Shown: positions 1 to 29,212, counted from the stretch's first letter. The stretch: DNA of 64,000 nt from Escherichia coli (GCF_024223415.1 NZ_CP100500.1); one strand, 5' to 3'. Program-made: numbers and translations. The notes: generated from the sequence alone by a model not told the origin.

Positions 1-353
1 TTTATTTATGGGTGAAAATTTAGCTTTTTGTGCAAGTCATTAAATAGATACTTAAGTTATATTTCTGACTCTGCGGACAGTGAATAATTCATTATTCAGA
101 GTGAATAATAATGACCTGCCTTTAATTAGCAACTATTGGAAATACGTCGAAGTAGGTATATACGCCAGGATAAACCGATATATTTTTTATGGATATTCAT
201 TTTCCTTTAGCGGACTGTAAATTGCGGGGATATCGAACTTGTACTACTCATCTCAACACTCAAACAGATTTATGAATTTCGTTCATAACCCCTGACAAAT
301 CCTGCCGTCTAATCGAGCTCTTCTCTTTACGTTATGCTTCTCATGAACGATAA

Positions 354-3220
<2,867 letters not shown>

Positions 3221-3360
3221 CTATTATTTTAGCCACATTATTAGTAACAATGATAATCTGGCTGTATCGAAAATAATTCTAAACTTTCAGGAGATTTATT
3301 ATGAATAAACGTATCCTCACGATTGTGCCATTCTTCTTACCGATATTCTGACACATATCA

Positions 3361-17462: not shown

Positions 17463-17878
17463 ATCTACCCTGCTTGTACCATTATGTTATACACCTCTTT
17501 AGGAGTATTCATAAAACAAGGAAAATGTAAAGAACCGTATTGTTTTGTATAACAAGATGGTTGTCTAATCGCCAAAGAATATAAGCACCATCATTTCTCC
17601 CTATTTTTATATTAGAAGTGACATAGATTTGCAGGGTGATGCAGAGCTGACAATCACAGGTTTCCTTATCGGTTTTTGCATCGTACAACTCAAGCAATAA
17701 ACCAGCTCCCATCATCATCAACATCCCGGCGAACATGAATTTATTAGCCGGGCTCATAGCTGCATTCGCGTTTTAAGAATAATCCTCCTGCTGTCGCCGA
17801 CTATGCTTAACGTTTAAAAAAGCATCAGCACTCTCGCAACGCACTCTTATTTTCCCTTTAGAATACCGGAGGCCTGGT

Positions 17879-18568
17879 ATGAGCAACCAAGGCGAATACC
17901 CCGAAGATAATCGGGTTGGGAAGCACGAGCCGCACGATTTCAGTTTGACCCGTCGCGATCTGATTAAAGTGAGCGCCGCAACGGCGGCGACCGCCGTGGT
18001 TTATCCTCATTCTACGCTTGCGGCAAGCGTTCCGGCAGCTACACCCGCGCCAGAGATAATGCCCCTGACACTTAAGGTGAACGGCAAAACCGAGCAGCTT
18101 GAGGTGGATACCCGAACCACGCTACTGGACGCTTTGCGTGAAAATCTGCATTTGATCGGTACCAAGAAAGGTTGCGATCACGGACAGTGCGGAGCCTGTA
18201 CCGTGCTGGTCAATGGTCGCAGGCTTAATGCCTGCCTGACGCTTGCAGTCATGCATCAGGGGGCCGAGATCACCACCATTGAAGGCCTGGGTTCACCAGA
18301 TAATCTTCACCCCATGCAGGCGGCCTTTATCAAGCATGATGGCTTCCAGTGCGGCTACTGCACCTCCGGGCAAATTTGCTCATCAGTAGCGGTGCTAAAA
18401 GAGATTCAGGACGGCATTCCCAGTCACGTCACGGTCGATTTGGTTTCCCCTCCAGAAACAACTGCCGATGAGATCCGTGAACGTATGAGCGGCAACATCT
18501 GTCGCTGTGGTGCATACGCTAACATCCTTGCCGCCATTGAAGACGCTGCGGGGGAGATAAAATCATGA
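17879..18568 (+). CDS. paoA: periplasmic aldehyde oxidoreductase, 2Fe-2S subunit
   Basis: 229-aa ORF with twin-arginine signal ([16 protein letters not shown]) and two 2Fe-2S cysteine clusters ([11 protein letters not shown]; CGYCTSGQ). Confidence 0.9.
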
Positions 18569-19521
18569 AGGCGTTTACCTATGAACGAGTGAACACCCCC
18601 GCCGAGGCGGCACTTAGCGCTCAGCGCGTACCCGGCGCAAAATTTATCGCGGGCGGGACCAATCTGCTGGACCTGATGAAGCTGGAAATTGAAACGCCCA
18701 CCCACCTTATCGATGTGAACGGGCTCGGGCTCGATAAGATCGAAGTGACCGACGCGGGTGGGCTGCGCATCGGCGCACTGGTACGGAACACCGACCTGGC
18801 GGCTCACGAGCGCGTGCGTCGTGATTACGCGGTACTCTCCCGCGCCCTGCTCGCTGGCGCGTCTGGTCAGTTACGCAATCAGGCAACCACAGCAGGTAAT
18901 CTGCTCCAGCGCACGCGCTGCCCCTATTTTTACGACACCAATCAGCCCTGCAATAAGCGCCTGCCCGGGAGCGGCTGCGCGGCGCTTGAAGGCTTTAGCC
19001 GTCAGCACGCGGTGGTAGGCGTAAGCGAAGCCTGCATTGCCACCCATCCGAGCGATATGGCGGTCGCAATGCGGTTGCTGGATGCGGTGGTGGAAACCAT
19101 CACGCCGGAGGGAAAGACTCGCAGTATCACACTGGCTGATTTTTATCACCCACCGGGGAAAACGCCGCACATTGAAACCGCCCTGCTTCCCGGTGAGCTT
19201 ATCGTTGCGGTGACGTTACCTCCGCCGCTCGGCGGAAAACATATCTACCGTAAGGTGCGCGATCGCGCCTCCTACGCCTTTGCCCTGGTATCGGTCGCGG
19301 CGATTATTCAGCCTGACGGCAGCGGGCGCGTCGCGCTGGGCGGAGTAGCACATAAGCCCTGGCGCATTGAGGCTGCGGATGCTCAGCTATCCCAGGGGGC
19401 ACAGGCCGTGTATGACGCGCTGTTCGCCAGCGCCCATCCCACCGCTGAAAACACCTTTAAACTCCTGTTGGCGAAGCGAACGCTTGCCTCCGTACTGGCT
19501 GAAGCGAGGGCACAGGCATGA
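18565..19521 (+). CDS. paoB: periplasmic aldehyde oxidoreductase, FAD-binding subunit
   Basis: 318-aa ORF; start overlaps the paoA stop, indicating translational coupling. Confidence 0.9.
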
Positions 19522-21716
19522 AATTTGATAAACCCGCAGGGGAAAACCCGATCGATCAGCTGAAGGTTGTCGGTCGTCCCCATGACCGCATCGACGGACC
19601 GCTGAAAACTACCGGCACGGCACGCTACGCCTACGAATGGTTTGAAGAAGCTCCCAACGCCGCCTATGGCTATATCGTCGGTTCCGCCATTGCCAAAGGA
19701 CGCCTCACCGCCCTTGATACGGACGCCGCGCAAAAAGCGCCGGGCGTACTGGCTGTCATTACCGCCAGTAACGCCGGGGCACTCGGCAAAGGCGACAAAA
19801 ACACCGCCAGGCTGTTAGGCGGCCCCACTATTGAGCACTATCATCAGGCCATTGCGCTGGTAGTGGCCGAGACCTTCGAACAGGCACGAGCGGCGGCCTC
19901 GCTGGTGCAGGCGCACTATCGCCGTAATAAAGGAGCTTACTCCCTGGCGGACGAAAAACAGGCCGTCAGTCAGCCGCCGGAAGACACGCCCGACAAAAAC
20001 GTCGGTGACTTTGACGGGGCTTTCTCCTCCGCTGCGGTGAAGATTGATGCTACCTACACGACCCCGGACCAGAGCCATATGGCGATGGAGCCGCATGCCT
20101 CGATGGCCGTCTGGGATGGAAATAAGCTTACTCTCTGGACCTCAAATCAGATGATTGACTGGTGCCGCACCGATCTGGCAAAAACGCTGAAAGTGCCCGT
20201 GGAGAATGTGCGTATTATCTCCCCGTATATCGGCGGAGGGTTTGGCGGCAAGCTCTTCCTGAGAAGCGATGCGCTGCTGGCAGCCCTCGCCGCCCGAGCG
20301 GTGAAACGTCCGGTTAAAGTGATGCTCCCCCGCCCCACTATTCCCAATAACACCACGCACCGCCCCGCAACCCTTCAGCATCTGCGTATCGGTGCTGACC
20401 AGAGCGGGAAAATCACCGCTATCTCACATGAAAGCTGGTCCGGAAACCTGCCCGGCGGCACGCCGGAAACGGCGGTACAGCAAAGCGAATTACTCTACGC
20501 AGGGGCAAACCGTCATACCGGCCTGCGGCTCGCCACGCTTGATTTGCCGGAAGGGAATGCCATGCGTGCGCCCGGCGAAGCCCCCGGTCTGATGGCGCTC
20601 GAAATCGCGATCGACGAACTGGCGGAAAAAGTGGGCATCGATCCCGTCGAGTTTCGCATCCTGAATGACACTCAGGTTGACCCCGTCGACCCGACGCGCC
20701 GCTTCTCTCGCCGTCAGCTTATCGAGTGCTTGCGCACCGGAGCGGATAAATTTGGCTGGAAGCAGCGCAACGCCACACCCGGACAGGTGCGCGACGGGGA
20801 GTGGCTAGTCGGCCACGGCGTCGCGGCGGGCTTTCGCAATAATCTGCTGGAAAAATCGGGGGCTCGGGTTCACCTCGAACCAAACGGCACCGTTACCGTG
20901 GAAACGGACATGACCGACATTGGCACCGGCAGCTACACCATTCTGGCCCAGACGGCAGCGGAAATGCTTGGCGTACCGCTGGAGCAGGTTGCGGTTCACC
21001 TCGGCGATTCCAGTTTCCCGGTTTCTGCGGGTTCTGGTGGACAATGGGGCGCGAATACCTCCACCTCCGGCGTTTACGCCGCCTGTGTGAAGCTTCGCGA
21101 AATGATTGCCTCGGCAGTCGGGTTTGATCCTGAGCAGTCGCAGTTTGCCGACGGCAAGATTACCAACGGTACCCGAAGCGCCATGCTAAATGAGGCCACC
21201 GCAGGCGGCAGACTGACAGCGGAAGAGAGCATTGAATTCGGAACACTGAGCAAGGAGTACCAGCAGTCGACCTTTGCCGGGCATTTTGTGGAGGTCGGCG
21301 TGCATAGCGCGACGGGAGAAGTTCGGGTCCGGCGTATGCTCGCTGTGTGTGCTGCAGGACGCATCCTGAATCCGAAAACTGCACGCAGCCAGGTCATTGG
21401 CGCAATGACTATGGGCATGGGCGCGGCACTGATGGAGGAGCTGGCGGTGGATGACCGTTTGGGCTACTTCGTTAATCACGATATGGCGGGGTATGAGGTG
21501 CCGGTCCATGCGGATATCCCAAAACAGGAGGTGATTTTCCTGGATGATACCGACCCCATATCCTCCCCGATGAAGGCCAAAGGTGTCGGTGAGCTGGGCC
21601 TGTGCGGCGTGAGCGCGGCTATCGCCAACGCAGTGTATAACGCCACCGGTATTCGGGTACGCGATTATCCCATCACTCTGGATAAGCTGCTCGATAAGCT
21701 GCCTGATGTGGTTTAA
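19518..21716 (+). CDS. paoC: periplasmic aldehyde oxidoreductase, molybdopterin subunit
   Basis: 732-aa ORF of the xanthine-dehydrogenase large-subunit family; coupled to paoB. Confidence 0.9.
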
Positions 21717-21725
21717 GGAGGAACA

Positions 21726-22682
21726 ATGTCATACCCGCTTTTTGATAAAGACGAACACTGGCATAAGCCAGAGCAGGCGTTTCTCACCGATGACCACCGG
21801 ACCATTCTGCGCTTCGCCGTAGAGGCGCTAATGTCCGGTAAAGGAGCGGTGCTGGTGACGCTGGTGGAGATACGCGGCGGCGCGGCGCGCCCGCTCGGGG
21901 CGCAGATGGTGGTGCGCGAAGATGGTCGTTACTGCGGTTTTGTCTCTGGCGGCTGCGTGGAGGCCGCTGCCGCTTTTGAAGCGCTGGAGATGATGGGCTC
22001 AGGCCGCGATCGCGAAATTCGCTATGGCGAAGGTTCGCCGTGGTTTGACATCGTTCTGCCCTGCGGCGGAGGGATCACGCTGATGCTCCATAAACTACAC
22101 ACGGCACAGCCTCTGCTCGCCGTGCTGAACCGCCTGGAACAGAGAAAACCGGCGGGGCTGCGCTACGATCCGCAAGCACAATCGCTGGTGTGCCTGCCCA
22201 CGCAAACCCGGACGGGCTGGAATCTCAATGGCTTTGAGGTGGGGTTCAGGCCATGCGTCAGGCTGATGATTTACGGACGTTCTCTTGAGGCGCAGGCAAC
22301 CGCGAGTCTTGCAGCAGCCACAGGCTATGACAGCCATATCTTCGATCTTTTTCCGGCCTCAGCCAGCGCTCAGATCGATACCGATACGGCGGTCATTTTG
22401 CTGTGCCATGATCTCAACCGGGAGCTGCCAGTGTTGCAGGCCGCGCGAGAGGCAAAACCCTTTTATCTCGGCGCATTGGGCAGCTATCGAACCCACACTT
22501 TACGTCTGCAAAAGCTCCACGAGCTGGGATGGTCCAGGGAGGAGACAGCGCAAATCCGGGCACCCGTCGGGATATTCCCCAAAGCCCGGGATGCGCATAC
22601 TCTGGCACTCTCCGTGCTGGCAGAAGTCGCCTCTGTACGTCTCCATCAGGAGGAGGATTCATGCCTGCCCCCGTCGTCCTGA
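21726..22682 (+). CDS. paoD: XdhC-like molybdenum-cofactor insertion chaperone
   Basis: 318-aa ORF, last gene of the pao operon. Confidence 0.9.
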   Translation: MSYPLFDKDEHWHKPEQAFLTDDHRTILRFAVEALMSGKGAVLVTLVEIRGGAARPLGAQMVVREDGRYCGFVSGGCVEAAAAFEALEMMGSGRDREIRYGEGSPWFDIVLPCGGGITLMLHKLHTAQPLLAVLNRLEQRKPAGLRYDPQAQSLVCLPTQTRTGWNLNGFEVGFRPCVRLMIYGRSLEAQATASLAAATGYDSHIFDLFPASASAQIDTDTAVILLCHDLNRELPVLQAAREAKPFYLGALGSYRTHTLRLQKLHELGWSREETAQIRAPVGIFPKARDAHTLALSVLAEVASVRLHQEEDSCLPPSS

Positions 22683-22741
22683 TCCTTGCGGCCGGGCGTG
22701 GAAAGCGCTTTCTCACCTGCGGGGGAAATACCATAAATTAA
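22661..22741 (+). pseudogene. truncated nucleotidyltransferase (MobA/MocA-like) stub, 26 codons
   Basis: ATG with GGAGGAGG ribosome-binding site overlapping the paoD 3' end; encodes MPAPVVLILAAGRGKRF..., the N-terminal nucleotide-binding motif of MobA-like transferases, then stops after 26 codons. Confidence 0.5.
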
Positions 22742-22860
22742 GAGAAAAATCTGCAGTAGCCGTTTTAGAAAATCACCTAAATCGTTTAAAAGAGCGCCCT
22801 ACCCATAGTGGTTGCTCATCGCCTTGTGTAACTTATTCAGCAACGCGCGCCCTCGCCGGA

Positions 22861-24054
22861 CTAAAGCGCACCGGCCTTCTGGCGTGCGGTAACAAAGGTC
22901 AGTACGCCCGCGCAAAGGAGCAGCACACTACTCATGGCAAACGTACTCTGCCAGCCAAGGCGGTCAAACACGATGCCTCCTGCCGTTGATCCAAGGGCGA
23001 TTGAGAGCTGAATCACCGCGACCATGAGCCCGCCTCCGGCTTCGGCGTTGTCAGGCAACGTACGCGCAATCCATGTCCACCATCCGGTTGGCGCGGCGGT
23101 GGCCAGCATGCCCCAGAGTCCTAACAGCAGCGAGACCGTCCAGACGTGATGCCCGGTAAGCATCAGACCGATGGCAATGACGGCCATCAGTCCGGGTATG
23201 GCCATCAGCGTGGGGTAGAATTTTCTGTTGAGAAATGTCGAAACAACCAGCGTGCCAATAAAACCGGCCACGCCGATAATCAGCAAAATCAACGACAAGC
23301 CTAAGGAATTAACCCGTGTCACCGACTCCAGAAATGGGCGCACATAGGTGAATAGCGCAAACTGCCCCATGAAAAACAGGCCACAAGCTATCATGCCGAC
23401 CACGACCATGCGGCGGCTAAATAAGCGGAATACCGCGCCAAATGACGCGTGGCTTTTATTCGCATCCATGCTGGGCAGACTAATACACTGCCAGATAAAG
23501 GCGACAACCGCGATAGGCACCAGGCACAAGAAAGCGCCTCGCCATCCGACCGTAGCCCCCAGATAGCTTCCCAGCGGTGCGGCCACGACCGTTGCCAGCG
23601 CATTACCGGCGTTGAAAATCGCCAGCGCACGCGTGACCTGATGCTGCGGCACCAGACGAATCGCCGTTGCCGCTGACATCGACCAGAATCCGCCAATGGC
23701 CACACCAATCATCGCACGACCGACCATATACATCAGATAATTGGAAGCCAGCGCAATAATAAGCCCCGATACGGCCATCAGAACCGTCATCCCCAGCAGC
23801 AGGAACTTACGATTCATCTTTCCAGCTAGCGTTGAAAGCGTCAGGCTGGTCAGAACCGCCAGCGCGCCGGAGATAGCAATCCCCTGCCCTGCAAGCCCCT
23901 CCGTCACGCCTAAATCGCGGGTAATCGGCGTGAGCAGGCTGACGGGCATAAATTCAGAAGCAATCAGCACAAACACGCACAGGGTCATGGCAAAAATACC
24001 GCCCCAGTATGCGCGCTGATGATGAGGTGATGGTGTTTGGCTTAGTGTCGACAT
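22861..24054 (-). CDS. MFS transporter (12 predicted helices)
   Basis: 397-aa hydrophobic ORF with major-facilitator-type loop motifs. Confidence 0.85.
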   Translation of the reverse strand: MSTLSQTPSPHHQRAYWGGIFAMTLCVFVLIASEFMPVSLLTPITRDLGVTEGLAGQGIAISGALAVLTSLTLSTLAGKMNRKFLLLGMTVLMAVSGLIIALASNYLMYMVGRAMIGVAIGGFWSMSAATAIRLVPQHQVTRALAIFNAGNALATVVAAPLGSYLGATVGWRGAFLCLVPIAVVAFIWQCISLPSMDANKSHASFGAVFRLFSRRMVVVGMIACGLFFMGQFALFTYVRPFLESVTRVNSLGLSLILLIIGVAGFIGTLVVSTFLNRKFYPTLMAIPGLMAVIAIGLMLTGHHVWTVSLLLGLWGMLATAAPTGWWTWIARTLPDNAEAGGGLMVAVIQLSIALGSTAGGIVFDRLGWQSTFAMSSVLLLCAGVLTFVTARQKAGAL

Positions 24055-28312: not shown

Positions 28313-29212
28313 ATGAAAATCGATCTTAATCTTTTACCCATTTTTATCGCGGTAGCAGAAGAGAGTAATTTTAGTAAAGCCGCCGCACGGCTGGGCGTTA
28401 CCCGTTCAGCGGTCAGTCAGGGAATAAGACGCCTTGAAGATGCATTCGGGACAATGCTTGTAATGCGGACCACGCGCTCAGTTAATTTGACAGAAGCGGG
28501 AGAACGGCTGCATAAATCGCTGTCATTACCTTTATCCGGTATTGAGACAGCGTTCGAAGAGATGGTTTCTGACCATGTGCCACGCGGACTTCTCAGAATC
28601 GCGGTGAGGTCGATAGCAGAAGAATTTCTTTCAGGTCCGCTAATCGCTTCGTTTGCAGCTGCCAATCCAGCCGTTACGCTTGATATTGTTGTAACGGATG
28701 AGGAATTCGATATCGTGGCCGCAGGTTACGATGCTGGCGTAAGGCTCGGAGAGGTCATTGAAAAAGACATGATTGCTGTGCCCCTTACCGGCAGGCAGCG
28801 TGAAATGGTCGTTGCCTCTCCCTCCTATCTCGCAGCCAACAGCACACCTGTTCATCCGCGTGAACTTGTGAATCATAAGTGTATCGGCTGGCGTCAATCC
28901 CCGGATGTTGCGCCTTATCGCTGGCCATTTGAAGAAAACGGGAGAGTTTTCGACCTTGCGATTGAACCGCAGATTACGACTAATGATCTGCGTCTGATGT
29001 TGAGGCTGGCTCTTGCCGGCGGAGGAATAACAATTGCCACTCAGGAAACTTTCAGGCCATATATTGAAAGCGGTAAGCTTGTATCTCTGCTTGATGACTT
29101 TCTTCCACAATTTCCGGGCTTCTATCTGTATTTCCCACAGCGTCGCAATATTGCACCAAAGCTCCGCGCCCTGATTGACCACGTCAAGGAATGGCGGCAG
29201 CAATTGGCTTAA
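28313..29212 (+). CDS. LysR-family transcriptional regulator
   Basis: 299-aa ORF with LysR helix-turn-helix; divergent from the SDR gene. Confidence 0.85.
   Translation: MKIDLNLLPIFIAVAEESNFSKAAARLGVTRSAVSQGIRRLEDAFGTMLVMRTTRSVNLTEAGERLHKSLSLPLSGIETAFEEMVSDHVPRGLLRIAVRSIAEEFLSGPLIASFAAANPAVTLDIVVTDEEFDIVAAGYDAGVRLGEVIEKDMIAVPLTGRQREMVVASPSYLAANSTPVHPRELVNHKCIGWRQSPDVAPYRWPFEENGRVFDLAIEPQITTNDLRLMLRLALAGGGITIATQETFRPYIESGKLVSLLDDFLPQFPGFYLYFPQRRNIAPKLRALIDHVKEWRQQLA

Follow-up and report, generated by a model that had tools for sequence, protein, structure and literature searches.

The paoABCD operon of Escherichia coli is followed by a short overlapping reading frame, which is very probably the non-functional remnant of a lost fifth operon gene, a nucleotidyltransferase of the MobA/MocA superfamily whose codons past 27 have been lost. 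The full-length paoD-linked gene, which lies directly after paoD in other Enterobacteriaceae, is referred to here as paoE, a name used for convenience. The DNA analyzed is a stretch of 64,000 nt from E. coli (GCF_024223415.1, NZ_CP100500.1), hereafter the window, and the features under discussion are collected in Table 1. PaoD harbors the Pfam domains XdhC_CoxI (E 1.1e-20) and XdhC_C (E 1.5e-20). E. coli paoABCD has been treated as a four-gene operon with paoD last (PMC3909100), and in the literature searched on PaoD and MocA neither the stub nor a fifth pao gene is mentioned.

Table 1. Features of the pao locus and its surroundings, with positions counted from the first letter of the window.
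Feature	Position	Strand	Basis or remark
paoA, iron-sulfur subunit, first operon gene	17879..18568	+	ORF; RefSeq annotation of near-identical locus L001
paoB, FAD subunit	18565..19521	+	ORF of 318 aa; annotated paoB in E. coli records
paoC, molybdenum-binding subunit	19518..21716	+	ORF of 732 aa; annotated paoC in E. coli records
paoD, XdhC-family cofactor insertion chaperone	21726..22682	+	318-codon ORF; Pfam; annotated paoD in L001
Shine-Dalgarno-like AGGAGGAGG	22648..22656	+	4 nt between AGGAGGAGG and the stub ATG; read directly
Stub ORF, 26 codons plus stop	22661..22741	+	translation, protein alignment, BLASTP, DNA colinearity
1-nt deletion (ACCCAT to ACCAT)	22733..22734	+	frame shift, makes TAA 22739-22741
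Ancient junction (proposed)	22741..22742		last homologous base ends ..CATAAATTA; unrelated DNA begins AGAGAAAAATC..
119-nt spacer between stub and MFS gene	22742..22860		no Rfam match, no significant fold
Convergent MFS transporter gene, outside the pao operon	22861..23988	-	RefSeq annotation in L001; longest ORF 22861-24054
CATAAG in the intact LysR gene (28313-29212)	28874..28879	+	microhomology partner of the stub CATAA(A), 22734-22738

The stub and signs of its decay within E. coli

Translation from the ATG at 22661-22663 gives MPAPVVLILAAGRGKRFLTCGGNTIN and terminates at the TAA at 22739-22741, as read directly from the window, where the sequence around 22661 is ..CATCAGGAGGAGGATTCATGCCTGCC... 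The stub and paoD overlap by 22 nt, and AGGAGGAGG doubles as the PaoD codons for residues Q-E-E (within ..HQEEDS..). With its start overlapping the upstream stop and its Shine-Dalgarno element inside paoD, the stub appears to retain the geometry of translational coupling. The first-pass annotation had described an ATG with a strong ribosome-binding site overlapping the last 22 nt of paoD and a stop after 26 codons about 120 bp before the convergent MFS gene; both hold, and the gap is 119 nt. Of the relatives described below, L008 has AGGAGGAGG at the Shine-Dalgarno position and L004 has AGGAAAG, which is weaker. Since the retained strong ribosome-binding site consists of paoD codons, it is uninformative on expression of the stub.

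The N-terminus of the stub had also been read as the glycine-rich motif of MobA/MocA-type nucleotidyltransferases. The residues of the loop (LAAGxGxRF/M type) do match the family: L9, A10, A11, G12, R13, G14, R16, and F17 fit invariant or near-invariant columns of a 20-member family alignment (A2), the exception in the stub being K15, where E15 is invariant. However, the motif by itself is not significant, since the 26-residue peptide has no PF12804 match in Pfam even at E ≤ 10, matches no NTP-transferase model in NCBIfam (TIGR03310 score nil), and yields no match by BLASTP to E. coli MocA, a comparison of the kind proposed at first pass. Synteny and DNA homology therefore carry the case, and the stub is best described as a presumed descendant of a PF12804 member, not as a domain-bearing member itself. 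A LonC_helical match in the Pfam and NCBIfam scans of the stub alone (E 0.035) was dismissed as spurious.

A search of 5,426 complete E. coli genomes with the full-length gene of L004, run at blastn sensitivity, gives matches in 3,597, always over nt 1-77 or 1-78 only (88%, E ~1e-17); in none of the 5,426 does the match reach 80% of the gene, and the best coverage is 14%. Likewise, no full-length homologue bearing an Escherichia name occurs among the 120 best protein matches. Across the complete genomes of the species, no intact copy is present at the locus, as expected of a gene remnant.

What remains of the gene appears to be drifting. The window lacks one C that is kept in all other sequences compared (ACCCATAA in L010, L014, L015, K-12 (L002), L004, L008, and L012), and in strains without this 1-nt deletion the reading frame extends to 35 codons (L014, L015), at least 73 codons (L010, antisense into the MFS gene), or 136 codons (K-12). 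Identity to the window, stub versus paoD, is 93.5 versus 98.8% for K-12, 94.8 versus 98.2% for L016, 90.2 versus 97.3% for L014, and 89.0 versus 98.2% for L015. The divergence of the stub among E. coli strains is 3-5 times that of paoD, a ratio resting on 3-8 substitutions in ~80 nt. The window and K-12 stubs differ by four substitutions, each of which alters a stub amino acid; K15 in the window and C16 in K-12 replace residues (E15 and R16) that are invariant in the 20-member full-length alignment. These observations point to relaxed constraint, with no apparent selection on the stub product, and are supportive rather than statistical.

It is very unlikely that the stub is instead a functional micro-ORF, either encoding a micropeptide or acting, through coupling or termination, to adjust paoD expression or mRNA stability. 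Such a role would be in keeping with the presence of the ATG and strong Shine-Dalgarno element in every E. coli sequence examined and with the retention of nt 1-77/78 in all 3,597 pao-carrying genomes. However, the ATG, the Shine-Dalgarno element, and the first 22 nt are retained because they are paoD codons, and would be conserved regardless. The variation of the stop and of the C-terminal sequence by strain, the accelerated and amino-acid-changing divergence relative to paoD, and the apparent fusion of paoD to the stub frame in some strains through a slip in a C5 run (P0003, discussed below) also argue against it.

The intact gene in relatives

Relatives were chosen via PaoD homologues of 66-87% identity, and the contigs around those homologues were inspected. 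A PF12804 gene (NTP_transf_3, MobA-like NTP transferase) encoding 183-188 aa lies directly 3′ of paoD in all eight inspected relatives with a pao operon. The overlap with paoD is 22 nt in four of them: L004, an Enterobacter oligotrophicus-like genome that carries the label “unidentified bacterial endosymbiont”; L008, a Logan assembly; and L017 and L018, metagenome contigs 345 and 573 kb long. In the other four, Leclercia (L005), Citrobacter freundii (L006), Sodalis praecaptivus (L007), and another Logan assembly (L009), it is 1 nt (TAATG-type). In addition, L012 (Logan SRR11245250, 4028-6148) harbors a 5′-truncated paoD and a full-length paoE-like gene with the 22-nt overlap; its protein bears the NCBI name Salmonella enterica. 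The search for a full-length gene after paoD in other Enterobacteriaceae, suggested at first pass as a check, was thus positive, and the accompanying proposal that the ancestral operon carried its own nucleotidyltransferase gene is supported both by this gene and by DNA colinearity.

The genes downstream of paoE are different in every lineage among the eight relatives, and the ancestral right-hand flank was not found. A hydrolase gene in L012 was considered as a flank shared with a hydrolase gene of the window, and was set aside as a paralogue at only 43% identity. Two aldo-keto reductase genes and a LysR gene lie a few kb downstream of paoE in relatives and ~15-20 kb upstream of pao in the window (window 322-3305 versus L018 13775-16555 and L004 5660-6606, 81-83% DNA identity), indicating that the neighborhood has probably been rearranged between lineages.

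The order of events could also be read the other way, with the short form ancestral and the gene gained in the relatives, or with E. coli having received an already truncated operon by horizontal transfer; this is likewise very unlikely. The distribution of pao within E. coli is patchy, the locus (window 17700-22741) being present in 3,598 of the 5,426 complete genomes and absent from about one-third, with 12 matches on plasmids, and in K-12 pao adjoins prophage and integrase DNA. The 88-90% pao DNA identity to Enterobacter-like relatives (88% to the Enterobacter-like genome) seems high for different genera. These features favor the transfer reading, and there are hints of horizontal movement of the pao operon. 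A further point in its favor is the 92%-identical copy in L012, where the pao 3′ end adjoins integrase, umuD/C-like, UvrD-like helicase, and TraI genes. Since the truncated paoD and the full gene adjoin integrase and TraI there, the pao 3′ end also moves on an ICE-like element. Against an ancestral short form, full-length genes exist far outside the Enterobacteriaceae: in Pseudomonas stutzeri (L013), XdhC-family and MocA-like genes are adjacent in reversed order, and homologues of the full-length gene also occur in Thauera, Bordetella, and Pseudorhodoferax. Full length is therefore taken as ancestral. The transfer variant alters only the place of the truncation and leaves the identity of the stub as it is.

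The descent of the stub from paoE is supported at both the protein and DNA levels. By protein alignment, the stub shows 81, 73, 58, and 62% identity to residues 1-26 of four full-length proteins, and a single BLASTP comparison with the closest of them, P0153, gives 20 identities in 24 residues (83%, E 2e-13). The stub is alignable to the first 24 residues of the full-length proteins and, at the DNA level, over 27 codons. Nucleotides 1-77/78 of the L004 gene match the E. coli stub at 88% identity, with E 8e-18 against 28 Gb. Colinearity of the pao DNA with the window extends across paoD and the stub, at 92% identity in L012, 89-90% in L017 and L018, 88% in L004 and L008, and 78% in L005 and L009. 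The colinear alignment ends at 22732-22741 in the closer relatives and at 22737-22741 in the closest five, and at 22727 in L007 (73%) and 22722 in L006 (66% over the last 334 nt). Nothing of the 3′ part of the gene was detected beyond 22741 in the 119-nt spacer or in the whole window (blastn with word size 7, tblastx). Homology to one end of a gene that is intact and syntenic in relatives, confined to codons 1-27, marks the stub, as far as sequence can tell, as a gene remnant.

That the stub is merely a chance ORF with a glycine-rich string and no evolutionary link to a nucleotidyltransferase gene would fit the lack of NTP-transferase and MocA matches of the 26-residue peptide, but is scarcely credible, being refuted by the 78-nt DNA match (E 8e-18), the paoD-to-stub colinearity (85-92% in the closest relatives), and the 83% identity of P0153 at exactly that site.

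Junctions within E. coli and the composition of YagP

The point of loss can be placed by comparing relatives with form 1, the arrangement of the window, in which the 119-nt spacer and then the MFS gene come after the stub (912 genomes; L010, L014, and L015 are also of this form). L008 and L012 read ..ACC CAT AAA TTA GCC.., and form-1 strains read ..ACC CAT AAA TTA AGA GAA AAA TC.., i.e., CATAAATTA followed by GCCG in the former and by AGAG in the latter. Since the two diverge right after TTA, the junction is placed after codon 27 (22741/22742). The first-pass annotation had the gene lost by deletion at the end of the stub; the rest of the gene is indeed gone, but the 26-codon stop is not the junction and is better explained as a secondary, lineage-specific 1-nt deletion. 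The loss itself was either a simple deletion or a replacement by incoming DNA, which the sequences recovered, lacking the ancestral right-hand flank, do not distinguish.

In the window, the spacer and junction match no Rfam family, show neither a promoter-like nor a terminator-like consensus, and are free of flanking repeats; RNA folding at the junction gives z-scores near 0, none of them significant. In strain GMF054 (L010 520-570), the minus strand of the spacer harbors a GC hairpin (AGCGCCC..GGGCGCU) followed by CUUUUAAA in the centroid fold, a terminator-like arrangement after the MFS gene. The hairpin and CUUUUAAA could be the MFS terminator. The GMF054-type hairpin is degraded by 2-3 substitutions in the window (22780-22830, minus strand), where the consensus scan returned no terminator.

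K-12 and most other genomes have a second form, in which the sequence after ..ACCCATAAG switches to TGTATCGGCTGGCG... In the window, TGTATCGGCTGGCG is found at 28880, inside the LysR gene, preceded by CATAAG. Form 2 is therefore a 6.1-kb in-frame deletion between CATAA(A) of the stub and CATAAG of the LysR gene. The resulting ORF of 136 aa is exactly K-12 YagP (L002 6362-6772), which is labelled in databases as [quoted passage not shown]; a literature search on yagP returned nothing relevant. YagP is accordingly a chimera, in which residues 1-26 derive from the stub and residues 27-136 from the C-terminal part of the LysR protein (window 22661-22738 plus 28874-29212). K-12 yagP (b0282), annotated as a LysR fragment or pseudogene, shares with the window stub the first 26 codons, the ATG, the Shine-Dalgarno element, and the overlap with paoD. 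In contrast, the K-12 stub is fused to 110 C-terminal LysR residues, whereas in the window the LysR gene is intact and the stub ends at 26 codons.

The form-1 junction and the K-12 left breakpoint (within 22734-22738) are only 3-8 nt apart. An origin of both in one event was considered and rejected, since they are separate in position and their right-hand partners differ. No repeat or structure accounting for the closeness of the two breakpoints was found, and it may reflect coincidence or a local fragile spot or hotspot.

Public E. coli proteins include 448-aa PaoD-stub-LysR fusions, e.g., P0003, which reads ..EEDSCLPP followed by VVLILAAGRGERF.., suggesting a frame slip in or near the C5 run at 22669-22673 in the paoD/stub overlap. 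PaoD variants of 336 aa with frameshifted tails also exist.

Nature of the lost gene and implications

When three full-length relatives were rescanned, PF12804 scored 89-95 bits against a Pfam gathering threshold of 27 bits. Their best NCBIfam match is TIGR03310, MocA_YgfJ (E 1e-22 to 1.6e-25), with scores of 81-90 bits that lie below the 186.45-bit equivalog cut-off and so do not assign them to the MocA equivalog. The next matches are the DVU_1551-family, PucB, CofC, and, weakly, MobA. Over 91 residues, identity between the full-length family and E. coli MocA is ~21%, and hhalign, aligning 112 columns, relates the two with 80% probability. Among proteins of solved structure, the best sequence matches are Sulfolobus 3d5n and 2we9, a mycobacterial protein described as “MocA-related protein”. 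The lost gene would thus belong to a separate paoD-linked branch of the MobA/MocA superfamily and is not, on these comparisons, an orthologue of MocA or MobA.

MocA, the CTP:molybdopterin cytidylyltransferase of E. coli, makes the molybdopterin cytosine dinucleotide cofactor (MCD) and delivers it by interacting with PaoD (PMC3909100; PMC2997495). The relatives resemble MocA (YgfJ) in length (183-188 versus 192 aa), in harboring PF12804, and in being associated in the genome with the XdhC-family chaperone of an MCD enzyme. However, mocA is unlinked to pao, being located in the ygf/xdh region, and 5,169 of the 5,426 complete E. coli genomes (95%) have it intact, whereas the pao-linked gene is down to 78 nt.

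Closer parallels in gene organization are pucA-pucB of Bacillus subtilis and the corresponding genes of Arthrobacter pAO1 and Oligotropha carboxidovorans, in which an XdhC-family chaperone gene and a MocA-like gene are linked, adjacent, and co-transcribed in xanthine-oxidase-family operons (PMC2997495). For the full-length relatives, PucB ranks third among the NCBIfam matches (E 6e-11 to 3e-13). The pucA-pucB-type pairs are intact, whereas E. coli pao keeps only the first 27 codons. MobA, the GTP:molybdopterin guanylyltransferase, shares the superfamily and a similar N-terminal glycine-rich loop, but its match is much weaker (E 1.6e-6 to 0.27) and covers only the N-terminal ~45 residues; the enzymes that MobA serves contain bis-MGD rather than MCD (PMC2997495). 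On the basis of the family assignment, the tight linkage to paoD, and the precedent of the xdhC-mocA pair (pucA-pucB; PMC2997495), the lost gene is predicted to have encoded an MCD-making cytidylyltransferase for PaoC.

Under the remnant reading, the ancestral operon would have carried a fifth gene directly after paoD and translationally coupled to it, encoding a nucleotidyltransferase of ~184 aa, as in other Enterobacteriaceae. In the lineage ancestral to every pao-carrying E. coli, the codons past 27 would have been lost by deletion or replacement, joining the stub to unrelated DNA beside the MFS gene. The start codon, the Shine-Dalgarno element, and the first 22 nt would have persisted inside the paoD coding sequence while the other ~56 nt drifted, and in the window strain the 1-nt deletion would then have imposed the stop after 26 codons. 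The loss was presumably tolerated through the unlinked mocA, which would make the cytosine dinucleotide cofactor. Ribosomes finishing paoD may still start on the stub, producing a peptide that would have no role. The stub is a small, ordinary gene remnant and introduces no new mechanism or system; the event is of a familiar kind, given that XdhC/MocA-like linkage, truncated pseudogenes, and microhomology deletions are all known.

A broader proposal, whose chances fall somewhat short of even, is that most Enterobacteriaceae run a five-gene operon, paoABCD plus paoE, with a dedicated cofactor cytidylyltransferase, and that E. coli is a derived exception rerouted via MocA. If so, paoE, being distant from MocA, may be tuned to pass MCD directly to PaoD, the MocA-PaoD interaction described in the literature would have arisen secondarily, and K-12 YagP would be translated from the coupled initiation site of paoE. 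For annotation, E. coli paoABCD would be described as the truncated version of a five-gene operon widespread in Enterobacteriaceae, and the first 26 residues of YagP as the start of the lost gene, not as LysR. The stub also serves as a pointer to an uncharacterized paoD-linked MocA-like subfamily, whose members are at present annotated no more specifically than as “nucleotidyltransferase family protein”.

The 701 nt surrounding the stub match O145 strain RM9872 at 100% identity, but over 12.7 kb identity between the window and RM9872 is only 98.6%, which places the window in a related but separate strain. In RM9872, paoB is a frameshifted pseudogene (956 nt), whereas in the window it is an intact ORF of 318 codons.
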